From NCBI GenBank assembly GCA_041691775.1, contig JBEPUB010000013.1:11913-75912 (forward strand): a DNA stretch of 64,000 nt. Reading direction: 5' to 3'. The notes under the pieces are model-generated. The model was not told the DNA's origin. It was given only the letters and a program-made list of their open reading frames with translations, and did no database searches. This document shows, one piece after another, positions 7,039 to 23,405 of the stretch (positions are counted from its first letter, which is position 1; the number at the start of each line of letters is the position of its first letter). The translations under genes and the position numbers were made by a program. Source of the stretch: Gemmatimonadota bacterium. GTDB lineage: Bacteria; Gemmatimonadota; Gemmatimonadetes; Gemmatimonadales; Gemmatimonadaceae.

Positions 7039-8448
7039 TCAGTCCGTTCTCTCGGGCAGCGGGTTGTGCCAGCCTCCCGAGCGTGCGATCAGCGCGTCAG
7101 CCGCCTTGGGACCCCAGGTTCCCTTGCGGTACGGTAGCGCGTGCGGGTGCTTCGTCAGGACCGGGTCGACTGCGGCCCATGCGGCCTCGACAGCGTCCTC
7201 CCGGCTGAACAACGCCCCGTCACCGATCATGGCGTCGCTCAACAGACGCTCGTACGGTTCCTCGGCTCCAGACAGCTCTTCGAGCAGGTAAAGTTCCCGC
7301 AGGTCGCCGAGGAATTCCTTTCCGGGACGCTTGACCCGGGCGGCGATAGCGACGGCGGGATCCGGCGATATCCGGAACCGCACGTAGTCTCCCGGCCCGG
7401 CGCCCGGTGCCGCATCCGAGAACAGGGCGGTCGGTGGCGCCTTGAGCTCAACTCGAACCTCGGCGGCCGTCGTCGCGAGGCACTTGCCCGATCGCAGGTA
7501 CCACGGAACGCCCTGCCAGCGCCATGAATCGATGAACAGACGCACGGCGCAATAGGTCTCGACGTCGGAATTGCGGGCGACGTGCGGCGTCTTTCGGTAT
7601 CCCGCGTACTGGCCGCGCACCATGTCGCGCGACCTGAGCGGGCGCATCGCTTCGAACACCTTCGCCTTCTCGGCGTGAACGGATCCATAGCCCTGCTGGG
7701 CCGGTGGTTCCATCGCGAGCAGGGCCACAACCTGAAAGAGATGATTCTGGATCACGTCACGCAGGCAACCCGCGGTCTCGTAGAACGCGCCGCGGCTGCC
7801 CACGCCAAAGTGCTCGGCGACGGTGATCTGCACACTGGCGATGTAGTTCCGGTTCCACACCGGCTCGAACAAGGAATTGGCGAAGCGGAAGTAGAGGATG
7901 TTCATGATCGCCTCCTTCCCGAGATAGTGGTCAATGCGGAAGATGTCATTCTCGGGAAACGCGGCGTGGGCGATCGCGTTGAGCTTGCGCGCAGAGGCCA
8001 GGTCCCGGCCAAACGGCTTTTCGACGATGACACGCGCGTTATGCGCCAGACCGGAAGTGCCCAGGCCCTCGATCACCGTCCCGAACAGTTCCGGTGGAAT
8101 GGCGAGATAGTGCGCTGGGCGATGCGCGTTGCCCAACGCACTCTTGAGCGCGACGAATGTGGCTGGGTCTTTGTAGTCGCCGGCTACGTAACGGAGGAGC
8201 GCAAGCAGTCGCTTGAGCACCGTTCGGTCGACCTTGGCTCCGGACTGTCGGATACTGTCGGTCGCCCGTTGTCGCAATTCGGCCAGCGTCCACGGTGAAG
8301 ACGCCACGCCGATCACCGGCACCTTCAATGTGCCGTGCTTGACCATCGCGTACAGTGCGGGGAAGATCATCTTGTGAGCAAGGTCTCCCGTCACGCCAAA
8401 GAGCACCAGCGCGTCAGAAGGTAGAGCGGAGTCTTTCATCGGTGCCAT
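7039..8448 (-). CDS. zwf: glucose-6-phosphate dehydrogenase
   Basis: 469 aa with the NADP-binding motif [11 protein letters not shown] and the active-site motif RIDHYLGKE. Confidence 0.93.
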
Positions 8449-8627
8449 TGCGAGTGTGTCGTTCGAGTCATTAGGTCGATCATCGTGTCTCCTCTCCGGG
8501 CGATGCGGCCGCGAGTGCCTCGCATCAACGCATTCCGCATGCCGGTATTAAGGTAAGCTCAAGAGGCGGTCGTCACGTGCGCTGTAGTTTCCTATGGCCC
8601 CAATCGTGCCCTTGCTTACCTCTGTTG

Positions 8628-9392
8628 ATGCTGAAACCAGCCGCCACTCGACCGATAGCCGCGCGAACGCAGACGGCGCGAACGAAGACGGCGCCGACTA
8701 AGCCCGACGGGCCCGGCACGTCGAGCCGGCCGATCGCGTTGGTGCTGATCGACGACAACCGGTTGCTGCGCGAAGGGATCACAGCGGTCATACGCTCGCA
8801 GACGGGATTCACGGTGCTAGCGGCATCGGCCGATGTCGAGGAGGCGCTCCGCAAGGTACGTGAGGCGAATCCCGATATTGTGTTGGTCGATTTCGGGTTG
8901 GCGAACCACGACAGTCTCCGCCTGACCGCGACCGTCCATCAGGAAGTGCCGGCGGCACGCGTTATCGTTATGGGTCTCTCGCCACTGCAGGACGATGTCG
9001 CGGCCTTCGTGCGCGCTGGTGCCTCCGGCTTCATCATGAAGGACGCATCGTTCGAGGACTTCTTCACCACCATCCGACGAGTAGCGGCTGGCGAAGAGGT
9101 GCTACCTGCAGTGCTGACCAATTCACTGTTCGCGCAGATCGCGAAGAACGCAGCCAGTGGAGACAAGGCACAGATTCTGGAATCAGTACGCCTGACCTCG
9201 CGCGAGCGCGAGGTCGTGGCCCTCCTGGGCGACGGCTTTAGCAACAAAGAAATCGCCAAGGAACTTCATATTGCGGTGCACACCGTCAAGAGCCATGTGC
9301 ACAACGTCCTGGAAAAGCTGGCGCTCCGCAGCCGGCTAGAGGTGGCGGCCTTCAGCCACAACTCACGCGATGTTGTCACTAATAAGCATTAG
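8628..9392 (+). CDS. NarL/FixJ-type response regulator (receiver + LuxR HTH); no adjacent histidine kinase
   Basis: Receiver domain (IALVLIDDN.., DIVLVDFGL) and LuxR HTH (LTSREREVVALLGDGFSNKEIAKELHIAVHTVKSHVHNVLEKL). The start is uncertain. ATG 8628 gives a 37-aa T/A/R/P-rich leader, while TTG 8739 or GTG 8742 would start directly at the receiver. Confidence 0.8.
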   Translation: MLKPAATRPIAARTQTARTKTAPTKPDGPGTSSRPIALVLIDDNRLLREGITAVIRSQTGFTVLAASADVEEALRKVREANPDIVLVDFGLANHDSLRLTATVHQEVPAARVIVMGLSPLQDDVAAFVRAGASGFIMKDASFEDFFTTIRRVAAGEEVLPAVLTNSLFAQIAKNAASGDKAQILESVRLTSREREVVALLGDGFSNKEIAKELHIAVHTVKSHVHNVLEKLALRSRLEVAAFSHNSRDVVTNKH

Positions 9393-9558: not shown

Positions 9559-9816
9559 TCAGTTCTTGTTGTTCCTCCCCCGTGCGACGATCCATGCCAC
9601 TAGCGCGACGATAACGACAACCAGGATCAGCATCCATGGTCCGCCATGCCCGCCCATCCAGCCGTAGCCATCGCCGCCTCCCATCATGCCGCGTCCCATC
9701 ATGCCGCCACCACTACCGTGGCGCTGGGCGGCTCCCGCGCAGGCCACCAGGGTCAGTGCGCCGATCGATACCGCGGCGCCGAACATCCTGCGAATGTCAA
9801 TGTGTTTCATGATCAT
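9559..9816 (-). CDS. small Gly/Met-rich membrane-anchored (lipo)protein
   Basis: The inner start MIMKHIDIRR gives a signal peptide with lipobox-like LVAC. This is followed by a GGGMMGRGMMGGGDGYGWMGGHGG tract and a C-terminal TM helix (WMLILVVVIVALVAWIVARG). The first 60 codons of the 147-aa ORF look non-coding. Confidence 0.45.
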   Translation of the reverse strand: MIMKHIDIRRMFGAAVSIGALTLVACAGAAQRHGSGGGMMGRGMMGGGDGYGWMGGHGGPWMLILVVVIVALVAWIVARGRNNKN

Positions 9817-10120
9817 GGTCCGTGGGATGGTGTCACGTTCACGAAAGCCGGGCTCACTTCTCGGCGTCGGCGGCCTGCGTGTGATAGCTCTGACGAATAT
9901 GGTATCGTACCCGATCACGCTTGCAAGCACCATCGCTCGAAAGAATGAGCGGAACCAGCGCGGCCAGAGCGACAAGAGCGTCATCATCTCAAGCTGGCTC
10001 ATGAGCGCTCCAGTGCGCTGCCGGCCGCTCCACTCATCCCTTTGAGCGATACCCGCGGCACGGTCGCACGCCTAGCTTGCATATGCCGCCCATCGCGGCG
10101 GCCATTCCATTGGAGGATTG

Positions 10121-10315
10121 ATGAAGGAGCCAAAATCGAAAGCGCGCCATTCACCGGCGCCAGAAACGGGGGATCCCAAGGATCCAAAGGCAGCCAAGCA
10201 GGACAAAGTCGATGGTAACCCGCCGTTCACGACCAAGTGGGGCATCACCAGCCCCAAGTTCGGCAGCGCCGGATCCGGCGGTGCAGAGGACTCGCCGGGA
10301 CCCGAAGCCGACTGA
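10121..10315 (+). CDS. small hydrophilic hypothetical protein (64 aa)
   Basis: ATG at 10121 is preceded by GGAGG (10112-10116) with a 4-nt spacing. It is a Lys/Pro/Gly-rich sequence with GC-rich third codon positions. I recognise no family. Confidence 0.35.
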   Translation: MKEPKSKARHSPAPETGDPKDPKAAKQDKVDGNPPFTTKWGITSPKFGSAGSGGAEDSPGPEAD

Positions 10316-10407
10316 CACTGACTACCGGAGGTTGACATTTCCCAGCGCCCCCGGACGCACAATACGAACGGGATCCGCCACGGTCATAGAGCATTGAAGT
10401 CCACAAA

Positions 10408-11340
10408 CTAGCCATTTTCGGACATGGCTTTGGCGGCACCTCCGTTCGATCCACGTTTTGCGCTGAGCGCCTCGAAGCCCGAGACGACGTCGAACAGTTC
10501 TTCATCAATGGCACTTTGGCGCACACGGTGAAACGTTCCGGTAAGCGTCTCCAACAACTCGTCGATGTTCTTGTCCGCGCGCTGCATGGCGGCAAGACGG
10601 CTGGCGTTCTCGCTTGCAAGCGACTCGGCGCACGCTCGGAAGAGCGAGATGAACAGATACTCATCGACGAACATGCGTAGCGTCAACGAAGCGTCACCGA
10701 GAACCTGGGGAATACTTTTGGTCGGCCAGGGGGTTTTGGCCACGCCTTGTTTCCACTGCGCGTCGAGAGGCAATAGCCGAAGGCCAACAGGTTCATAGAG
10801 CGCACCGGCAAGCGGACGATTGTGGAAGACAAAAAGCCGCGCGTATTCTCCTTTGGCTCGATGCGCTTCGCTTTGGATCTGAATCTGTCCGACGAGCGGC
10901 GTGATGGCGTTAACTGAATTCGGCACGTCGAAAAGCCCCACCACCGGTATCCCGGCGTCGACCAGCCGCGCGCGAACGCGTTCACCGACGGCCCATACTT
11001 GGGGTGTGGCTGGAAGTGTCGCGAGGCTCTTTATCGCGTAGTCGGCGACCACTTCGTTGAACTGTCCGACCAATCCCTGATCAGAACCAAACACAATGGC
11101 GCCAACAGCGCTCGCATCGGGTTTTCGGCTCTGCCCTGCTGCTGACGTGGTAGCTTTGGTTTCCCGAAAGCAGGCTTCCAGTCCCAGCTCCACGGTTCGA
11201 TAGTAGTCGGCCAACGCTCGCACAGAATTCTCGTACTGCGTGATACTCGATGCAGCCAAGACTTTCATCGTGCGGACGACAGACTGAAGCTCGCCAGCAC
11301 TGCTAACCTTTCGTCGCAGGCTCGACGTCGTGTCACTCAT
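10408..11340 (-). CDS. atpG: N-type ATPase gamma subunit
   Basis: 310 aa with a gamma-like N-terminus ([25 protein letters not shown]) and C-terminus ([19 protein letters not shown]). ATGA overlap with atpA. It is the last gene of the N-ATPase order. Confidence 0.85.
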
Positions 11341-12971
11341 GATTTCCCCTTTACCGCTGGAGCGGCCACCGGATTGACTTCAGGCCTGGGTTCTGGTTTA
11401 ATCGCGGTGTCGGCTTTGGCTGGCGGCGTGGCGGCGGGCTTTGGCTGGAAGCTGATGAGCGCCTTACGCGCAATTTCGATAATCGCATTACGGTCGTCAT
11501 CGCTCAACTTGTCGGCCGATACGAACCGTGCAGAGACCTCCGCTGGAATACTCGACGCAGCGGCCTCCACGGCGTTTTCAGCAACGGTCATTTTTTCAAG
11601 CGGCACCGCGTCGAAGAGTTCCGCCGTCAACGCGAGGAGAACCGTAATCTGTGCAGGCACCGAGACTGGTGTGAATTGCGGTTGCTTGAGACACGCACGA
11701 ATGCGCCGTCCGTGTTCGATACTCTTGCGGGTGCTCTCGTCCAGACGTGCGCCGAATCGTGCGAATGTCTCCAGCTCCTCGAATTGCGCGTAGGCGAGCT
11801 TGAGGTCTCCCGCCACCGCGCGATAGGCAGCGCGTTGCGCCTTGCCGCCGACACGCGAAACCGATTTCCCGACGTCGACCGCCGGCAGCACGCCGAGTTC
11901 GAACAGCGATGGCGAAAGATAGATTTGCCCATCTGTAATGGAAATGAGATTTGTCGGGATGTAGGCGGAGATGTCCTGCGCCTCCGTCTCGATGATTGGT
12001 AGCGCGGTGAGTGAACCGCCGCCAAGCTCGGTGCGCAAGTGTGTGGCGCGCTCAAGCAGACGCGAGTGGATGTAGAAGATGTCGCCGGGAAATGCCTCGC
12101 GACCCGGCGGTCGACGCAGCAACAGGGACAATTCGCGATAGGCACGCGCGTGCTGCGTGAGGTCGTCGTACACGATCAGGACGTCGCGCCCCGCTTCCAT
12201 GAAATGTTCCGCGATGCTGGTGGCGGCGTAGGGCGTGATGTACTCAAGCCCGGGCGCGTCGTTGCCCTCGGCCACCATCACCACGGTGTAGTCCATCGCT
12301 CCTCTCTCCCGGAGCGTGGCTATGACTTTCGCAACCGCCGACGCGCGCTGGCCGATGGCGCAATACACGCAAATGACGTTCTGGCCGCGCTGATTGAGAA
12401 TGGCGTCGATCGCAATGGCCGTCTTGCCAGTCTGGCGGTCGCCCAGAATCAACTCTCGCTGGCCACGTCCGATGGGAATGAGCGCATCGATGACTTTCAG
12501 GCCGGTTTGCAGAGGCACGGTCACCGGTGCACGATCCATGATCGCAGCCGCGGGGCGTTCGATAGGTAGGCGGGCGCTGGTGCCCACCGGTCCATTGCGA
12601 TCAAGTGGCCGACCGAGAGGGTCGATGACACGTCCAAGCAATTCATCGCCGACTGGCACGTCCATAACGCGCCCCGTACGCTGCACTTCATCGCCAGCCT
12701 GCAGGTGCCAAAATTCACCAAGGAGCACGACGCCGACTTCGGCTTCGTCCACGTTGAACGCGATGCCGAAGACGCCGCCGGGAAACTCGAGTATCTCGTC
12801 GTAGCCGACGCCGGGAATGCCGCTGACCCTCGCGATGCCGGTGGAGATACTCGTGATCGTGCCCACCTCCCGCGGTGACAGTTGCGGCGTGAAGGCATCG
12901 CGCGCCTTATCGATTCCCGCGAACGTGCGATCGAAGACGCTCTGCAGTGATTCAGGCTCGGCGGTCGTCAT
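11337..12971 (-). CDS. atpA: N-type ATPase alpha subunit, with a 35-aa Pro/Ala/Lys-rich C-terminal tail
   Basis: 544 aa with Walker A GDRQTGKT and typical alpha blocks ([19 protein letters not shown]). ATGA overlap with atpF. Confidence 0.93.
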
Positions 12972-13786
12972 TGCTTGACTTCCGGGGCAGTTTCATCAGG
13001 CTTGACTTGAGCGGGGATCTTTGGCTTGACGTTCTCTTTCAGAAGTTCGCCAACGCCTTGTTGCAGTGACGCGAGGTAATCGCCGATGCTCCACGCTACT
13101 TTTTGCCCGTTGGCCGTTAGTTCGATGCCGCTGACCAGGTCCGGCGAAGTCTCGAACTGCAGATGGATATCCGCCGAGAATGTTTCATTGATCGCGGTTT
13201 GGATTGCAGCGCGCTGCTCCGGGGGCAGATCAGTCGAGCTGCGTACGAGCGCGGGTCCAGTATTCGTTTTGAGGGCCTTGCCGAGGTCGTCCTTTGGCTG
13301 GCCATTCATTGCGCGCAGGCGGTGCGTGAACACACCGACCATGCGTTCCTCCAACGTTGTATCGGCGAGATCCGTCAGCGCCTTGCGAGCGATTGCAAAT
13401 ACTTCTTGCTGCGCCCGAAGACTGATGGCTTGATTCAGGCGATCGGCTTCGTTGCTTAGCGCTGCCTGTCGCGTGACGCTCAAGGCATCTGCAGTCTTGT
13501 GCGCTTCGTCAATTAATCGCTGGCGCTCAGCGTTCGCTTCTTCGGTCGCCTTGTTGAGCAGGTCCCCGCGTTGCTTGTCGAAGTCCTCGTTTTTTTGCTG
13601 GAATTCGTCGTGCTCTTCTTGTGCCTCCGCCTTTTTTGCGTCGGCGTCCGCCAATTCCTTTGCAATTCGTTTTTCCCGCTCGTCGATGGCGTGCAGTATG
13701 GGCTTGTAAAGGAAACGCTTCATCAACCACACCAGGATAAGGAAGTTGAGCGCCTGGGCGCCGACTGTGAACCAGTCGATCAGCAT
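12968..13786 (-). CDS. atpF: N-type ATPase b subunit, long form with a delta/OSCP-like C-terminal half
   Basis: 272 aa with an N-terminal TM helix ([22 protein letters not shown]) and a charged coiled-coil. The C-terminus ([26 protein letters not shown]) resembles delta-subunit C-termini. The operon has no separate delta gene. Confidence 0.8.
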
Positions 13787-13790
13787 CGGT

Positions 13791-14072
13791 TCACTTCCCT
13801 ACCGCCTGGGTAATGACGTGACTCCAGAACGGGTTGGCGAAAATGAGAATCATCGAGACCACGAAGCAGTAAATGGCCGTGGACTCGATCATCGCCAAAC
13901 CGACAAAGAGCGTGCGTGTGATTGTGGCTGACGCATCCGGTTGCTGCGCCAGCGCCGCCAGCGCCGACGCTACCGAGCGCCCTTCCCCCAGCGCTGGCAT
14001 CATGCATCCAATACCTGTTGTCAGGCCAGCGGTGACAATCGAGGCAACTGCAATAAGGGTCATGCTATCCAT
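13791..14072 (-). CDS. atpE: N-type ATPase c subunit (proteolipid)
   Basis: I prefer the start ATG 14072, preceded by AAGGAG with a 5-nt spacing. It is a two-helix hairpin with the loop AQQPDA and the ion site IESTAIY. It aligns well by eye to the Ilyobacter tartaricus c subunit. Confidence 0.9.
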   Translation of the reverse strand: MDSMTLIAVASIVTAGLTTGIGCMMPALGEGRSVASALAALAQQPDASATITRTLFVGLAMIESTAIYCFVVSMILIFANPFWSHVITQAVGK

Positions 14073-14085
14073 CGGGTCTCCTTGG

Positions 14086-14784
14086 TTATTTCGTGATCGG
14101 TTCAACTATGGGCGCCGACTCGCGCGTGCGCGTGGCCGCGGCGATATACACCGCAGCCAGGATGCTGAAGATGTAGGCTTGTACCATGCCGGTGAGCAAT
14201 CCGAGTGCGGTCATGACGATCGGAAAGATGAAAGGCGTGATGGTAAGTAGAATGGCGACGATCATCGCGCCGCTCATCATGTTTCCGAACAGACGCACTG
14301 CCAGCGCCAGAGTACGTGACAGCTCGCTGATGATGTTGAATGGCAGCATGATGACGGTCGGCTGCGCATACGATTTGAGATAGCCACCGAAGCCTTGATC
14401 CTCGATGCCGAACAGCGGGACGGCCACGAATACACACAGTGCCAGTGCTGCGGTCGTCGATAGCGAGGCCGTCGGCGGCTCATAGCCAGGAATGACAATG
14501 CAGACGCTCGCGAGTGCGATAAAGAGAAAAAGCGTGCCCAGAAAGCCGAGATATTTCTCGGGATGTCTGAGGCCGACTTCTCCTATCTGTTTTTCGATCC
14601 CGGTCACAACGATTTCGAGGAGATTTTGCCAGCGAGACCGATGCAGCTCGACCGACAGCTTGCGCGTGATGAGTTTTGAGCCTATCACCAGCACGAGCAT
14701 CAGTGCCCATGTAAACGCAATGGTTGCGTTGAGCTTGAAAGCGCCGTAGTGCCAATAGACTACCTGATCGGGACTAAGATGCAT
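14086..14784 (-). CDS. atpB: N-type ATPase a subunit
   Basis: 232 aa, polytopic, with the essential Arg motif LALAVRLFGNMMSG. Confidence 0.88.
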   Translation of the reverse strand: MHLSPDQVVYWHYGAFKLNATIAFTWALMLVLVIGSKLITRKLSVELHRSRWQNLLEIVVTGIEKQIGEVGLRHPEKYLGFLGTLFLFIALASVCIVIPGYEPPTASLSTTAALALCVFVAVPLFGIEDQGFGGYLKSYAQPTVIMLPFNIISELSRTLALAVRLFGNMMSGAMIVAILLTITPFIFPIVMTALGLLTGMVQAYIFSILAAVYIAAATRTRESAPIVEPITK

Positions 14785-15091
14785 GGCTTCCCTGCGCTAC
14801 CGGAGGCTGGCTGCCTTCAACACGTGGTCGCGTCAGCCAGGTCACGATGAGACGCGCCATGACAAATCCGACAAGGCAGCTCACGATACTTTGCCACCGA
14901 TGGCTGCGCGCGATCACAAAGAAACCAGCCAGGACAATGCCCATGCGCGCCAACAAGCTGCCAAAGAACCACAAGGCCGCCCGATCGGACGAAACGCCCT
15001 TGCCAATCGTCCACCAGAGACCGCCGAAGAAAATCGCGCCGAGGATCAATCCAGCAATCAACGCCGGCACCAGTGCTACAGTTTCATCCAT
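14774..15091 (-). CDS. atpR: N-ATPase accessory subunit AtpR
   Basis: The true start is the internal ATG at 15091 (MDETVALVPALIAGLILGAIFFGGLWWT), which overlaps the atpQ stop by 8 nt. It is about 105 aa with 3 TM helices, in the diagnostic position between atpQ and atpB. The upstream part of ORF 14774..15298 is the alternative frame of the atpQ repeat. Confidence 0.75.
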   Translation of the reverse strand: MDETVALVPALIAGLILGAIFFGGLWWTIGKGVSSDRAALWFFGSLLARMGIVLAGFFVIARSHRWQSIVSCLVGFVMARLIVTWLTRPRVEGSQPPVAQGSHAS

Positions 15092-15453
15092 CGTGATTCT
15101 CCTGTTCGTCATGCAGCTCGTCATGCGTCTCGTCATGCGTCTCGTCATGCGTCTCGTCATGCATCGCCTTTTGTTCATTCGCGACCCAGTGCCACGCGTT
15201 GAGGCACCCGACTGACAACCCTGCCACCAGGAGCGCAAGCGTCCAGGAATGGCCGGCTGGATGGTGCTTGTCCAGCCAAAGACCAAGTGCTGCTCCAAGC
15301 AGCGTAGGAACGACCACCGACCAACCGATCAGTCCGATCATGCCGAGCCCGGACCAGACGTCCTGCGTCGAATTACGAGCGTCGATTTTGCGCGTCGCCT
15401 TCGCGCCGATCAGGTTGGCGAAGTCGTCGCTTGCGGGAATCTTCCCGGGATCT

Positions 15454-15461
<8 letters not shown>
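15084..15461 (-). CDS. atpQ: N-ATPase accessory subunit AtpQ (AtpI-like, ATPase_gene1 type) with a repetitive (HDET)n C-terminal tail
   Basis: 125 aa with two TM helices (GLGMIGLIGWSVVVPTLLGAALGLWLD ; WTLALLVAGLSVGCLNAWHW). It sits after atpC. The tail reads MHDETHDETHDETHDELHDEQENHDG. Confidence 0.75.
15107..15166. repeat. 12-bp tandem repeat, 5 units (3 perfect cgtcatgcgtct plus 2 degenerate)
   Basis: Read directly: cgtcatgcagct / cgtcatgcgtct x3 / cgtcatgcatcg. It encodes the HDET repeats at the end of atpQ. Confidence 0.9.
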
Positions 15462-17293
<1,832 letters not shown>

Positions 17294-19720
17294 TCAGGCT
17301 GAGTGGTTCCATGTCCAATTGCGAATCTCCGGCATGTCCTGGCCGTGTTCGTTGATGTACCGCTTGTGTTGGATCAGCTTGTCGGCCATCAATTGCTTGA
17401 GATACGCGCCCGGACCGCCGAGGTTTGGGACCCGATCTACAACGTCCTGCACGAGATGGAAACGGTCCAGGTCGTTCTGCACCCGCATGTCAAACGCCGT
17501 GGTGATCGTTCCCTCTTCCTTGTATCCACGAACATGCATCTTGTGATTGGTGCGGCGGTAAGTCAGTCGGTGCACCAGCCATGGATAGCCGTGAAATCCA
17601 AACACGACGTGCTTGTCGGTGGTGAAGAGCGAGTCGTAGTCGATGTCGCTCAGCCCGTGCGGATGTTCGGACTTGGGCTGCAGCTTCATCAGATCGACGA
17701 CGTTGATCACCCGGATTTTCAATTCGGGAAGATGCTCGCGCAGAATGGACACCGCGGCGAGAATCTCCAGCGTGGGTGTGTCGCCGCAACAGGCCATCAC
17801 GACGTCGGGCTCACTGCCCTGGTCGTTGCTCGCCCACGGCCAGATGCCGATGCCTTCCGTGCAATGGGTCACGGCGGCATCCATGGTCAGCCACTGCGGC
17901 AACGCGTGCTTGCCGGCCACGATGACGTTGACGTAATGCCGACTGCGTAAGCAGTGGTCAACGACCGACAGCAGGCAGTTGGCATCGGGCGGCAGATACA
18001 CGCGCACCACATCTGCCTTCTTGTTGACGACGTGATCGAGAAAGCCCGGATCCTGGTGCGTGAATCCGTTGTGGTCCTGCTGCCAGACGTGCGACGCCAA
18101 CAGATAGTTGAGCGATGCTATGGGCCGGCGCCACGGCAGCTCACGCGTGACCTTGAGCCACTTGGCGTGTTGGCTGAACATCGAATCGACAATGCGCACG
18201 AACGCTTCGTAGCAGTTGAAGATGCCGTGTCGCCCGGTGAGCAGGTAACCTTCCAGCCATCCTTCGCACTGATGCTCGCTGAGCATCGAATCGTGGACCA
18301 TGCCTGACGGAGCGAGGAACTCGTCGTTCGGGATCGTTCGTGCGTCCCACTGGCGATTGGTGGTCTCGAAGACTGCACCGAGTAGATTGGACAGCGTCTC
18401 GTCGGGACCGAAGACGCGGAAGTTGCGATGCTCCTTGTTCAGCGTGACGACGTCACGGAGGAAACCTCCGAGCACGAGCGTATCCTGCGCGGTGACAGCG
18501 CCGGGTGCCAGCACCGTAACGGCGTGTGCGCGGAAGTCCGGCATCTGCAGGTCGCGCAGCAGGATGCCTCCGTTGGTATGTAGGTTGGCGCCCATCCGCC
18601 GATCGCCCTTGGGCGCAAGCTCGGCAAGCTCCGCCACAAGCCGCCCGTGTTCGTCGAACAACTCCTCCGGCCTGTAGCTCTTCATCCAGGCTTCCAGCAG
18701 CTTGACGTGATCGGGGTGCTCGGGATCAACCAGGATCGGCACCTGATGTGATCTAAACGTCCCTTCGATTTGCAGACCGTCGACCGCTTTCGGCCCCGTC
18801 CAGCCTTTCGGTGACTTGAGCACGATCATCGGCCAGCGCGGCCGAGTGGTGTCGTTCCCAGTGCGCGCATTCTCCCGGATCCTCCGGATCTCCTCGATGA
18901 CTTGATCCAGCGTCGACGCCATCAACTCATGCATCTTGTCCGGATCGTCGCCTTCAACGAACCACGGCGTCCAGCCGCAGCCGCGGATGAACTGCTCCAG
19001 CTCCTCGTGCTCGATGCGCGCCGGGATGCTCGGGTTGCTGATCTTGTATCCGTTGAGATGCAGAATCGGTAGCACCGCGCCGTCGGTGATCGGATCGAGC
19101 AGCTTGTTGGAGTGCCACGCCGTCGCCAGCGGTCCGGTTTCCGATTCGCCGTCGCCGACGACGCAAGCAACAATCAAATCCGGATTGTCGAACACCGCGC
19201 CAAATGCGTGGCTGAGCGAATATCCCAACTCACCGCCCTCGTGAATCGACCCCGGTGTAGTCGGTGCCACATGGCTCGATATGCCGCCCGGAAACGAGAA
19301 CTGCTTGAACAGCTTCTTGAGTCCCGCTTCATCCTGCGTGATGTTGGGATACACCTCGCTCCAGGTACCCTCGAGATACACGTTGCCGACAATCGCCGGA
19401 CCGCCGTGACCTGGGCCGGCGACGTAGAACATGTCGAGATCGTATTTCTTGATGACCCGATTCAGATGCACGTAGATGAAGTTCTGGCCCGGTGTCGTAC
19501 CCCAATGACCGACAACCAGTGGCTTCACGTCTGACAGCTTCAGCGGCTCCTTCAGCAGCGGATTGTTGTACAGATAAATCTGGCCGACCGAGAGATAGTT
19601 GGCGGCTCGCCAGTATGCATTCATTTTCTGAAGCAGGTCTGGAGCTAGAGTCGCCGCTTCTGTGTTCATGGATGTTGCGTTCATTGAAAGCACAGTAATG
19701 GGATCATGTTCGTTCATCAT
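17294..19720 (-). CDS. xfp: xylulose-5-P/fructose-6-P phosphoketolase
   Basis: Signatures [15 protein letters not shown] and [16 protein letters not shown], and an N-terminal [15 protein letters not shown]. The ORF opens at GTG 19738. ATG 19720 gives an N-terminal length typical of Xfp, so the start is uncertain by about 20 nt. Confidence 0.92.
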
Positions 19721-20933
19721 GCGCTGCGTTGCCGCCACTCACGTCCAGTCCAAGTACACTGCACACCGAGCGCGCAATAACGAGCTCTTCATCCGTACGA
19801 ATGACCCGAACGGTGACACGGCTCGCATCCGTAGAAATCACGGCCGCGCTCTCCGCATTGCGCGCGGCATGCAGTTCGACGCCGAGGAAGCCCAGTCCAT
19901 CGCAGATACGCGCGCGCACGACCGGCGCGTTCTCGCCGATGCCCCCGGCAAAGACGAGCGTATCCAATCCACCAAGCGCCGCGGCATATGAGCCGATGCG
20001 TTTCTTTATCTCGTAGCAAAACAGCGCGACCGCTTCTGCCGCACGCACGTCATGCGCTTCGTGCTCGAGCAGGTCACGCATGTCCGAACTTGTCTCGGAC
20101 ACGCCGAGGAGTCCCGATTGTGAGGTGACCATCTCGTTGAACTGCTTGGCGCTCATGCGTTCGGTGCGGGCGAAATACCACGCGAGTGCTGGATCGAGAT
20201 CGCCCGACCGCGTGCCCATCGGCACGCCGGCTGTGGGAGTGAAACTCATGCTAGTATCCACGGACTTACCGTCACGCACCGCCGCCAGACTCACGCCGTT
20301 GCCAAGATGGCCCAGAACAACTCGACCTCGTGCCACGTGCGATCCAGCCAGGCGGGCGAGTTCTCCGATGAGGAATTCGTACGACAGTCCGTGAAACCCA
20401 TACCGCCGCACTCCCTTTGCCTCATACCGGCGCGGGATAGGTAGCAGTTGCGCCACCCGAGGCATGTCATGGTGAAACGCCGTGTCGAAGCACGCTACCT
20501 GGGGGATCGCGGGGAAGCGCCGATGAAATGCCTCGGTCACCAGGATCTCCTCCGGCAGATGCTCAGGATCGAATGGGCTGAGCCGGCGTAACTCCTCGAT
20601 TATTTCCGGAGTGATCCACTGGGGACTGCTATACTTCGGGCCGCCATCAACCACTCGATGTCCCACTGCAGTTATTGCGTCGCGCTCGGTGTGTTCATCG
20701 ATCCAGTCCAGCAGGGCGTTCACCGCGACGGTGTGGGTTGGCGCCGTCATTGGTTGGGAAACGTTGTCCGCTGAGTTCACAGCCGTCGCGCGAAATGTTG
20801 ACCCCGGCTGGCCAATTCGCTCAATTCCACCCTTCAGCAGACGCCGGAACGACTCACCGGCTTCGAATAACGCAAACTTGAGGCTGGACGAGCCTCCGTT
20901 GAGCGTCAATATGCGTGGGCTAGCGGTTGCCAT
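19704..20933 (-). CDS. ackA: acetate kinase
   Basis: 409 aa with motifs [20 protein letters not shown] and [11 protein letters not shown]. Confidence 0.92.
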
Positions 20934-21677
20934 GAACGGCTCGCGCCAACGGGACCTGTATCGATGTCGAGAAATACACTTGTGATTGCAGAAGCCGCGA
21001 CATTGCCTTTTCTTCCATCGACCTGCTCATTACTGGGCACTCGATCCAGCACAGGCGATTGCGCTGGCCGCGCGATGTCACAAGATCAGGCAGTGATCCC
21101 TGTTCACAAGGCATTTAGTAAGCCACCTTCAGTAAAGCGGCAGCCGTAGCGAGCCGAAGTCCGACCCGCCTCAAGTGGCGACCCCGCGGCGTTTCGCGCG
21201 GGCCACTGTAGGCAGTTGATCTACCACCGTCCCACGAATATGGCAAATCAAATGAAAAGACTTCACATGCGGATTGCGATTGGTGCAGTGATTCTTCTGC
21301 TCGTCGGCGCCTTCTGGTTTTATCGCATCAGTTTCCTTGGGCGATAAACGGCGGCTCGCAGCGGACTGCGTTCTCGGGCTGGTAAAGACGCGAAAGGACC
21401 AGCGGAGCGATGGCGAAAGCACGACACTGTTCTTGCACGTACTCGACGCGTACAGGGCACGCGGAGACCGTAACGGCTACTGAATCCCTTGGCTGCTGGC
21501 GCTGCTCGGCGTAGCCCTAAGAGAGCGCAACGTTAGGATGGACCCAACCAACAACATGCTCCATGCCTCGGCCGCTAGCAACCTCAAGCAACAGTCAGTG
21601 ACCGGCGAGTAGGCCGGATTTCGGTGCCGGCGTGAGGCGCTGGGCCACGGACATACCGTGCAGCCGCCGAATCGCAC

Positions 21678-22013
21678 TCATGCGCGCTCCTCTGCGCGCC
21701 GAAGCGCCTCCGTGCGGCCCAGGGTGTTCTCGATCAGCGAAACCAGACTGTCGGCTGCGCCGTGGACGGCGAGCGGAATCGTGTCGGCATGGTGAGTCGC
21801 TGCGATCGGCTGGCGCCCTGCAATGCGAGCCTCCAAAGTGCAGCGTATGTCGTCATGGCCACTCTTCGGGCCATTCTCGTCCGCAAGATGCACTTCCACC
21901 CGCGTGATGTTATCGCTGAACCGTTCCAAGGCAGACGCGATGACTTCCTTAATTTCTGTCGCCATCGGCTCGCGCACCTCTGTATTGGGGCCGGTACTGA
22001 TCTGGATCAGCAT
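21678..22013 (-). CDS. HPF/RaiA-family ribosome-associated (hibernation) protein, short form
   Basis: 111 aa. The pattern IQISTG..EV.E.M..EIKEVIASALERFSDNITRVEVHLADENG resembles S30EA/sigma-54-modulation proteins. It starts 3 nt after the PPK2 stop. Confidence 0.6.
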   Translation of the reverse strand: MLIQISTGPNTEVREPMATEIKEVIASALERFSDNITRVEVHLADENGPKSGHDDIRCTLEARIAGRQPIAATHHADTIPLAVHGAADSLVSLIENTLGRTEALRRAEERA

Positions 22014-22016
22014 GCA

Positions 22017-22958
22017 TTACTCCTGGTTTTGTGATTGAATACTCGGCCCATTTTCGGGCACCGCGTCGGGATTCCGTCCGGACTGCCCCTTTGACAATGC
22101 CACGCGAGCCTCCTCCAGCTCGCGCTGACGCTTCGCCGTCGGCCGCGGGTACGCCATCTTGAGTCCGTCGAGCGCATCGAGAACGATCCGGGACACAATT
22201 AGTCGGGCATTGTCCTTATCGTCGGCGGGCACCACGTACCATGGAGCATGATGCGTGCTCGTTGCCTGGAGACACTCCGCATACACCGTCATATACTTGG
22301 GCCAGAAGGCGCGTTCGTGGATGTCTGAGAGACTGAATTTCCAGTGCTTGCCTGGCTCGTCCAGACGGTCGAGAAATCGCCGTCGCTGCCCTTCGTACGA
22401 CAGATGAAGAAAGATCTTGACGACCCGAGTGCCGTTGCGGTGAAGATGCTTTTCCAACTGCTTGATCGAGCGATACCGGTCCTTCCAGAACCGGCCGCTG
22501 TCAGGCTCGGGATCGGGAAGCCGCTCGTTTAGCAGCAGCTCCGGATGAACACGCACCACGAGCACTTCCTCGTAGTAGGAGCGATTGAAAATTCCGATTC
22601 GTCCCCGTTCCGGAAGCCGACGATCGGTCCGCCAAAGAAAATCATGCTCCAATTCCTCTGCACTCGGCTGCTTGAAGGAGAATACTTCGCAACCCTGCGG
22701 ATTGACCCCCGACATGACATGACGGATGGCGCCGTCTTTCCCGGCCGCATCCATTCCTTGAAAGATCAGCAACAAGGCGTAACGATTGGACGCGGCGTGC
22801 AGACGCTGCAGGTCACTCAACCTGCTGACGTGTTCGGCAAGGAGATGCTCGTATTCTTTTTTTGAGTCGCAGAAGGCCTTCACGCTGGTCGGCCACTTCT
22901 CAAGATTGACCTTCGCCCCGGGCTTCACCTGGAAATCGTGGGACTCGATGGTGCTCAT
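22017..22958 (-). CDS. ppk2: polyphosphate kinase 2 family protein
   Basis: 313 aa with PPK2 Walker-A-like [15 protein letters not shown] and the lid region [18 protein letters not shown]. Confidence 0.88.
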
Positions 22959-23405
22959 GCTCGCTCCTCGCTATGGGTTATCGCAATACCCGAGCTTCGC
23001 GTAAAGCGCGCCAAGCGTGCGCATAGGTCGCCTCCGTGACGCCGCCGCATGTGCTGTCGCGTGTGTCGTCGCGTGTGTTGTCGCCGATTCACTCGCCGGC
23101 TGAACGGGAGGGCGTAAGCAAGTAGCGCGGAGCCCAGCTTCTGCTGACCTCCACCAGGGGCTCCGTTTTCAGATCGTTCGCGACGCGGCGGCGGGCCCTG
23201 ATCGCACCTCACCGCCCGGAGACTCGCGCCGAACCTGAAGATCCAGAGGATGAGTATGATCCAGGCAACATCGCCGCCTCAGCGTGTAAGAGTTGCGCGC
23301 AGCTGGTTAGCGCGTATCGCTTGTCGCGTCACAATTTCGGCTCTTCAGGGATTTTGTGGGCACTTCTCATCTTCACGATGAATCTCCGAGAGGATATGTA
23401 CCTAT

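Follow-up and report, generated by a model that had tools for sequence, protein, structure and literature searches.

An acetate kinase and phosphoketolase gene pair contiguous with a complete N-type ATPase operon in a Gemmatimonadota bacterium

N-type ATPases (N-ATPases) are recognised by the gene order atpDCQRBEFAG together with the subunit AtpR (PMC2881411; the order is also given in PMC9927469). They invariably occur as a second enzyme in genomes that have a canonical F- or A/V-type ATP synthase, and the general view is that they are ATP-driven ion pumps (PMC2881411, PMC9927469). The N-type c-ring of Burkholderia pseudomallei has 17 subunits and is H+-coupled (PMC5376962), and N-ATPase subunits increase at low O2 in Nitrospira marina (PMC8115632). 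The authors of the work on Nitrospirales leave both directions of the enzyme, pump and synthase, open. The structural paper PMC5376962 describes what N-ATPases do in the cell as 'largely unexplored', and current proposals are confined to salt or acid tolerance. Here we describe a locus on contig JBEPUB010000013.1 of a Gemmatimonadota bacterium, within a 64-kb stretch that was analysed as a whole (the window), in which genes for an acetate kinase-family protein (ackA) and a phosphoketolase (xfp) run directly into a complete N-ATPase operon. Phosphoketolase cleaves fructose 6-phosphate (F6P) or xylulose 5-phosphate (Xu5P) with phosphate to give acetyl-phosphate without net oxidation, and acetate kinase uses acetyl-phosphate and ADP to produce ATP and acetate.

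The window operon shares with the described N-ATPase operons (PMC2881411) the identical gene order, AtpQ and AtpR, the long b subunit and the lack of a delta gene. Its c subunit likewise has two Glu residues in the membrane and the ESTxxY motif, and strong signs of lateral transfer are common to both. The described operon consists of nine genes and was treated as an insertion among unrelated neighbours, whereas here two enzyme genes lie upstream and the junction has zero bases. The two enzyme genes are adjacent and co-oriented, as is known for the xfp–ackA pair, but the pair in the window runs straight into the genes of a presumed ATP-consuming ion pump. A link between xfp/ackA and an N-ATPase is mentioned neither in PMC2881411 nor in the structural paper PMC5376962, and it is also absent from a paper on ATP-synthase evolution and from several genome papers in which N-ATPases are discussed. 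No description of it was found in open-access full texts, subscription journals and gene-context databases being outside the scope of the search. A first-pass annotation, made from this DNA alone, had known of no description of the linkage, and the open-access literature agrees. The new element is the extension of an N-ATPase operon by a substrate-level-phosphorylation module; the N-ATPase operon itself is known.

The genes that surround N-ATPase loci, taken collectively, recall known low-oxygen gene sets. Around N-ATPase loci they include acetate kinase, phosphate acetyltransferase, Zn-alcohol dehydrogenase (Zn-ADH), cation P-type ATPase, universal stress proteins (USPs), nitroreductase, response regulators and storage-polymer genes. 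The mycobacterial DosR regulon has a similar low-oxygen and dormancy repertoire. So does the lxa low-oxygen locus of Burkholderia cenocepacia (PMC3721108). We rejected the lxa locus as a prior description of the linkage: an acetate kinase is present, and the locus as described (PMC3721108) has no rotary ATPase or phosphoketolase. Acaryochloris CCMEE 5410 has plasmid-borne duplicates of genes of carbon metabolism, among which aldolase, phosphoketolase, acetate kinase, a PGM-family protein, glycogen phosphorylase and a P-type ATPase are listed together (PMC3156569). The same paper notes an 'alternative ATP synthase' on a plasmid of the sister strain but does not connect it to the carbon genes. 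The A. marina plasmid pREB4 differs from the window in having ppsA, not xfp, upstream of atpD.

Composition and packing of the cluster

The cluster consists of ackA, xfp and the complete N-ATPase operon, and all gene identities are above curated cut-offs. The genes are listed from the first to the last, with window coordinates, strand and the family models that identify them.

19704-20933, minus strand: ackA, acetate/propionate-family kinase, 409 aa, first of the 11 genes (PF00871, E=3e-117, 392 bits; TIGR00016, 381 bits, cut-off 293)
17294-19720, minus strand: xfp, phosphoketolase, 808 aa from the ATG at 19720 (XFP_N, XFP and XFP_C; NF003619, 1416 bits, cut-off 962)
15833-17293, minus strand: atpD, N-type F1 beta subunit, 486 aa (TIGR03305 'alternate F1F0 beta', 857 bits, cut-off 752)
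15454-15855, minus strand: atpC, N-type epsilon subunit, 133 aa (TIGR03166, 166 bits; NF004871, 200 bits)
15084-15461, minus strand: atpQ, AtpZ/AtpI-like protein, 125 aa (PF09527; TIGR02230, 129 bits, cut-off 46.7)
14774-15091, minus strand: atpR, N-ATPase-specific membrane subunit, 105 aa from the ATG at 15091 (PF12966, E=1e-25; TIGR03165, 87 bits, cut-off 55.5)
14086-14784, minus strand: atpB, N-type Fo a subunit, 232 aa (TIGR03306, 378 bits, cut-off 302)
13791-14072, minus strand: atpE, N-type c subunit, 93 aa (TIGR03322, 162 bits)
12968-13786, minus strand: atpF, long b subunit, 272 aa (TIGR03321, 333 bits)
11337-12971, minus strand: atpA, N-type F1 alpha subunit, 544 aa (TIGR03324, 928 bits, cut-off 750)
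10408-11340, minus strand: atpG, gamma subunit, 310 aa, with which the cluster ends (PF00231, E=1e-53)

The AckA match is full-length, and only a subfamily-level model exceeds its cut-off; the substrate may be acetate or propionate. Xfp has the full-length three-domain XFP architecture, and its substrate may be F6P or Xu5P. The N-ATPase genes follow the order beta-epsilon-Q-R-a-c-b-alpha-gamma (atpDCQRBEFAG) from 17293 down to 10408 on the minus strand. The cluster has no separate delta gene, and the 4-nt overlap of atpF and atpA leaves no room for one between them. Weak delta-like matches were found in the C-terminal part of the b subunit AtpF, at residues 167-243. The first-pass annotation had taken this order without delta as the N-ATPase layout, in agreement with PMC2881411. 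For beta, alpha, a, b, c and epsilon, the 'alternate F1F0' models exceed their cut-offs and outscore the generic F-type models, as judged from profile scores and not from a tree. In the AtpR translation, Arg residues lie within hydrophobic stretches (LLARMGIV, FVMARLIV). There is no canonical atp operon within the window, which is part of an 85-kb contig that probably comes from a metagenome-assembled genome. The proteins that cluster at 90% identity with the AtpD and AckA of the window carry the names Acidobacteriota and Gemmatimonadaceae.

The genes are packed with hardly any space between them. The stop codon of xfp (TGA, 17296-17294) abuts the start codon of atpD (ATG, 17293-17291), which gives TGAATG at 17291-17296 on the minus strand with zero intergenic bases. 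At the preceding junction, the ackA stop codon (TGA) is at 19706-19704 and the xfp ATG is at 19720, an overlap of 17 nt. An alternative xfp ATG at 19684 would leave a 19-nt gap after ackA; the start at 19720 is likely because the N-terminal MMNEHDPI stretch is kept in relatives. Within the N-ATPase operon the overlaps are 23 nt (atpD/atpC), 8 nt (atpC/atpQ), 8 nt (atpQ/atpR), 11 nt (atpR/atpB), 4 nt (atpF/atpA) and 4 nt (atpA/atpG). The gaps are 4 nt (atpE/atpF) and 13 nt (atpB/atpE), the latter being the largest gap in the cluster. These figures assume two starts that were corrected relative to naive open reading frame (ORF) calls, namely ATG 15091 for atpR, not TTG 15298, and ATG 14072 for atpE. 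The first-pass annotation had described eleven minus-strand genes with overlaps of 4-23 nt or gaps of 13 nt or less and an atpD start codon immediately behind the xfp stop codon. The sequence and the family models bear out the former, and the latter can be read directly from the sequence.

Regulatory signals were scanned in 9800-23200. The sigma-70 scan gave three promoter-like sites, none on the operon strand and one inside the cluster (17229-17257, plus strand), and the intrinsic terminator scan gave ten terminator-like sites, several inside the cluster. No promoter- or terminator-like signal was found at any internal junction in this region, and neither count exceeds that expected from shuffled sequence. 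The sigma-70 consensus may not suit hosts of the Acidobacteriota or Gemmatimonadota type; the scan is weak evidence and carries no weight for or against internal promoters. Two features are candidates for the ends of the operon.

20934-21677, minus strand: non-coding or small-ORF region upstream of ackA, likely to be the promoter region; the sole sizeable gap, about 740 nt without a convincing gene
10144-10160, minus strand: terminator-like hairpin some 250 nt beyond atpG, on weak evidence a candidate for the end of the operon; the regional count of such sites is not above the shuffled one

No sigma-70-like site was found upstream of ackA in 20934-21677, where the consensus is uninformative for this lineage. 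The same region contains a 31-codon ORF on the plus strand (21252-21347) for a small hydrophobic peptide, MKRLHMRIAIGAVILLLVGAFWFYRISFLGR, which was read by eye and could be a chance occurrence. The eleven genes lie on one strand with minimal spacing, no terminator-like site occurs at their junctions, and their adjacency is conserved across taxa. Judged from these features, they probably form one transcript. The tight translational coupling implies joint production of Xfp and AckA with the N-ATPase.

Recurrence of the link and its evolution

To place the window among its relatives, 12 sequences were aligned out of 31 full-length representatives of the N-type a subunit, all of which match the alternate-F1F0 a-subunit model. 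This alignment was used to retrieve 80 loci from species-representative genomes, with a subunits 74-86% identical to that of the window. The hosts belong to Acidobacteriota, Verrucomicrobiota, Planctomycetota, Gemmatimonadota, Elusimicrobiota, Actinomycetota, Chloroflexota, Nitrospirota, Sumerlaeota, all proteobacterial classes and Methanosarcina, a spread that fits the lateral mobility described in PMC2881411. xfp and ackA were counted by tblastn with the window proteins, and 57 loci, those whose sequence reaches 3 kb or more upstream of atpD, were evaluable. A co-oriented xfp is found upstream of atpD in 17 of the 57 loci (30%), near full length in 12 of the 17, compared with 1/51 loci that have it downstream of atpG (Fisher p=6e-5). 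Two further loci have xfp at the contig edge, and xfp and/or ackA are present somewhere in 29/80 loci. The xfp-linked loci represent at least 8 phyla, and their taxa include Planctomycetota, Acidobacteriota, Gemmatimonadota, Elusimicrobiota, Actinomycetota, Verrucomicrobiota, Sumerlaeota and Alpha-, Beta-, Gamma- and Delta-proteobacteria. The adjacency of xfp and atpD is far beyond chance.

Besides the window, xfp adjoins atpD in nine genome loci, overlapping or touching it in eight and separated from it by a 22-nt gap in one (L011). The TGAATG junction of the window is also present in L005. The other junctions are ATGA in L015, L019 and L032, GTGA in L079 and TAATG in L044; in L029 and L033 the two genes overlap by 11 nt. 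A neighbourhood survey had been proposed in the first-pass annotation, which would have given up the linkage if the adjacency had proved a one-off. Instead, the link recurs in approximately 30% of the subfamily and in many phyla, usually with overlapping stop and start codons. In Frigoriglobus tundricola, which was reached by a separate route, xfp, a class I aldolase, TIM and a response regulator precede the N-ATPase. Remnants of xfp lie immediately upstream of atpD in L029 (7340-7525), L061 (7268-7387) and L068 (4421-4660). They are short, with 41-63% identity, and correspond to the C-terminal end of Xfp in L029 and L068 and to residues 303-370 in L061. These decayed remnants suggest that some members of the clade descend from ancestors with the link and have since lost it.

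AckA-like genes also occur near N-ATPase operons that have no xfp. In L008 and L020 such a gene (42-47% identical to the window AckA) lies 140-210 nt upstream of atpD, and each of the two loci has a second AckA-family ORF and a Zn-ADH gene further upstream. In L065 an AckA-like gene of the same degree of identity (42-47%) is approximately 750 nt upstream of atpD, with an 868-aa ORF on the opposite strand and a 95-aa ORF between them.

The link was also viewed from the side of xfp. The 80 closest relatives of Xfp in JGI metagenomes are 82-86% identical to it; the sample numbering hints that they are largely from peat and soil. Sixty-one of them have at least 1.5 kb of sequence downstream of xfp, and an N-type atpD follows in 10/61 (16%). 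In three of these ten the two genes abut: they overlap by 8 nt in L153 and L158 and are 8 nt apart in L148. A co-oriented ackA accompanies xfp in 34/80. Comparison of 34/80 with ackA and 10/61 with atpD shows that the xfp–ackA pair is the commoner unit, which the N-ATPase has joined in a minority of cases.

The Xfp proteins linked to N-ATPases share 72-95% mutual identity irrespective of phylum. Pairwise identities of Xfp and AtpA are correlated (Mantel r=0.54, p=0.0006), in part through the close pair L015/L019; the value for AtpD and AtpA is r=0.56. The covariation agrees with a transfer in which the extended cassette moves in one piece, and it would also be compatible with repeated recombination in a shared mobile gene pool.

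Genes around the N-ATPase loci

The flanking ORFs of all genome loci were clustered and the cluster representatives were annotated. Xfp ranks first among the flanking families (19 loci) and AckA second (13 loci). They are followed by P-type cation ATPase (9 loci), DUF2254 (8 loci) and PPK2 (6 loci, window included). Class I fructose-bisphosphate aldolase (FBA), Zn-ADH and a histidine-phosphatase (HisPhos)/PMM protein occur in 5 loci each. PPDK_N/PEP-synthase-like protein, glucan phosphorylase, phosphoglucomutase, phosphate acetyltransferase and Na+/H+ exchanger occur in 4 loci each, and an HPF-like family is represented at 3 loci, one of them the window. The window cluster itself is flanked by the following genes.

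22017-22958, minus strand: PPK2 polyphosphate kinase, upstream of ackA and co-oriented
21678-22013, minus strand: HPF/S30AE-like ribosome hibernation factor, upstream of ackA and co-oriented
8577-9392, plus strand: NarL/LuxR-type response regulator, downstream of atpG
7039-8448, minus strand: glucose-6-phosphate dehydrogenase, downstream of atpG

Two small ORFs without family assignment are also downstream of atpG. Farther out, the window has an RND efflux system, a TonB-dependent receptor, a sugar ABC transporter and a glucoamylase-like protein. Glucose-6-phosphate dehydrogenase is also encoded upstream of xfp in L017.

The recurrent families are combined in various ways. The order is PGM, HAD, PPK2, AckA, Xfp and N-ATPase in L016; Xfp, DUF2254, FBA, N-ATPase and PPK2 in L004; and Xfp, FBA, an unassigned ORF of cluster c40, HisPhos, N-ATPase and P-ATPase in L037. 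On a Hymenobacter plasmid, TIM, N-ATPase, PGM and glucan phosphorylase follow one another. In Polymorphobacter sp. PAMC 29334, plasmid p29334-1 (L085, L172) carries tkt-zwf-rpe-ackA-gnd-tal-pgi-rpiA-xfp-FBA(class I)-HisPhos, divergent from the N-ATPase. This cluster is essentially a near-complete enzyme set for cyclic, redox-neutral carbon recycling via phosphoketolase. On A. marina pREB4 (L169), ppsA is directly upstream of atpD, and genes for USPs, nitroreductase and Hox hydrogenase are downstream. A cation:proton antiporter gene is inserted between atpQ and atpR in this operon (12298-13527).

These gene sets bear on the possibility that the xfp–ackA pair and the N-ATPase are mere neighbours on a mobile island, brought together by deletion and without functional meaning. 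Both sets are horizontally mobile, with 72-89% identity across phyla and locations on plasmids, and the linkage is often lost, as would suit such hitch-hiking. A bias of side and orientation (17 upstream and co-oriented versus 1 downstream) argues against it, as do the start/stop overlaps that are kept in several forms across loci. In addition, where xfp is not adjacent, the genes between and around come from one pathway (aldolase, PGM-like, PPK2, glucan phosphorylase). We regard hitch-hiking as very unlikely.

Some loci depart from the usual organisation. On a Legionella anisa plasmid (L084, 78-2497), genes for a thymidine-phosphorylase-family protein and a ribose-phosphate pyrophosphokinase directly precede atpD, co-oriented and with a 50-nt gap, a further case of a nucleotide/sugar-phosphate gene pair joined to an N-ATPase. 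The Desulfobacterales contig CAXXIG010000003.1 has two near-identical N-ATPase operons approximately 43 kb apart (L006 and L007; 372268-392957 and 415889-436578). Several operons of the Desulfobacterales type are interrupted by 0.6-3 kb of extra DNA, between atpA and atpG in L006, L007 and L021 and between atpF and atpA in L025. The database proteins P0092 and P0108 (648-649 aa) and P0297, P0300 and P0312 (331-333 aa) combine epsilon and beta or AtpR and a domains. These entries are either real fusions or mis-called overlapping genes.

Proposed role and alternatives

We think it fairly probable that the locus is a laterally mobile cassette which energises the membrane without respiration, by means of an AckA and Xfp module for substrate-level phosphorylation that is translationally coupled to a complete N-type ATPase. 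When respiration stalls in anoxia, energy starvation or dormancy, stored glucan would enter as sugar phosphate. Xfp would split F6P or Xu5P to acetyl-phosphate, with no net redox change needed, and AckA would make ATP and acetate from acetyl-phosphate and ADP. The co-produced N-ATPase would spend that ATP on expelling ions, which may be Na+ here and H+ in some relatives. Membrane potential and ion and pH homeostasis would thereby be maintained. The idea that the ATP-producing module feeds the pump when respiration is unavailable, already put forward in the first-pass annotation, is strengthened by the recurrent neighbours and by the rise of N-ATPase subunits at low O2 in Nitrospira marina (PMC8115632). 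A low-energy state fuelled by reserves fits the neighbours that could feed in hexose phosphate (glucan phosphorylase, PGM). It also fits those that could recycle carbon (aldolase, TIM, tkt/tal and a His-phosphatase that might act as a bisphosphatase), as well as PPK2 and the ribosome hibernation factor.

The c subunit of the window has the helix-1 Glu (PALGEGR) and the MIESTAIY motif, the full Na+-ligand set by criteria that include those of PMC9927469. This motif suggests that Na+ is the ion of the window N-ATPase. Many relatives have ESIAIY in place of ESTAIY, and the choice of ion may differ among relatives, with H+ in some. One alternative is a response to acid or ion stress. During fermentation or overflow metabolism, the acetate formed by Xfp and AckA would acidify the cytoplasm, and the co-expressed N-ATPase would expel H+ (or Na+) mainly for pH homeostasis and not primarily for potential. 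ESIAIY instead of the full Na+ motif ESTAIY in many relatives would suit such a function, and so would the Na+/H+ exchangers and P-type cation ATPases that recur in the flanks. However, the c subunit of the window carries the full Na+ ligand set, and the presence of PPK2, the HPF-like factor, glucan phosphorylase and PGM speaks for energy reserves and dormancy, not for acid stress. The acid-stress explanation also overlaps heavily with that of a membrane-energising cassette, as one pump does both jobs. We consider it unlikely.

The direction of the enzyme raises a further alternative, in which the N-ATPase is a synthase for low gradients, with a large c-ring, and is merely co-regulated with Xfp and AckA as a parallel source of ATP. 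By established bioenergetics, the 17-subunit c-ring of B. pseudomallei (PMC5376962) favours synthesis at low ion-motive force, and both directions were left open in the work on Nitrospirales. On the other hand, the N-ATPase is always additional to a canonical ATP synthase and is usually taken to be a pump (PMC2881411, PMC9927469). The first-pass annotation had likewise cited the proposal that they act as ATP-driven ion pumps and not as synthases, and later papers concur (PMC9927469). A gradient would have no obvious source without respiration, and an export of ions would agree with the Na+/H+ antiporters and P-type ATPases encoded at the same loci. Parallel ATP supply is in our view quite unlikely. 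On sequence evidence, this alternative and that of acid or ion stress are inseparable from the model of a membrane-energising cassette. A reverse reaction of Xfp and AckA, assimilating acetate for an enzyme in synthase mode, was also considered and was rejected, since phosphoketolase cleavage is effectively irreversible by established biochemistry.

Several points weigh against the proposed role in energising the membrane. Upstream xfp is absent within reach from 70% of the subfamily operons, and the N-ATPase is downstream in just 10/61 close Xfp relatives, 51/61 having no N-type atpD in the available downstream sequence. The loci are related by horizontal transfer, and their counts are not independent events. 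Neither xfp nor ackA was found next to the N-ATPases of the PCC 7002 plasmid pAQ7, of a plasmid of Burkholderia pyrrocinia and of Cereibacter sphaeroides pA. These distant N-ATPase clades were sampled from annotated plasmids, the profile search having yielded the same dominant subfamily alone. The xfp link is a trait of this N-ATPase subfamily, not of all N-ATPases, and the coupling is optional. Promoters internal to xfp may exist, being compatible with the scan results. The predicted ion specificity is taken from the motif, and the B. pseudomallei enzyme is H+-coupled; we infer that the enzyme works as a pump and not as a synthase. The physiological role at the window and at the other xfp-linked loci is deduced from gene context. 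FNR/Anr-like boxes (TTGAT-N4-ATCAA, at most 1 mismatch) were observed upstream of atpD 5 times, with about 1 expected (L014, L020, L049, L063 and L071, 17-226 nt upstream), and L044 has one 119 nt upstream of ackA. This enrichment is too weak to claim oxygen regulation and hints at it in some hosts.

A broader interpretation, which we put forward as possible rather than probable, is that the dominant N-ATPase clade of soil and peat is the membrane-energising end of a horizontally traded kit for anoxia and dormancy, and not primarily a device for salt tolerance. Glycogen and polyphosphate would supply a redox-neutral phosphoketolase route that resembles non-oxidative glycolysis. This route would yield acetyl-phosphate and ATP, with which the pump would hold the membrane potential in respiratory bacteria.

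The link to an oxygen-independent, redox-neutral source of ATP suggests a concrete, testable physiological role for the N-ATPase, in a setting of genes for glycogen, polyphosphate and ribosome hibernation. The combination of an ATP generator and an ion pump could also serve as a compact set of parts for engineering. The cassette is apparently common in peat and soil metagenomes and occurs in many phyla. For this reason it may be relevant to the survival of aerobic soil bacteria under waterlogging and anoxia.

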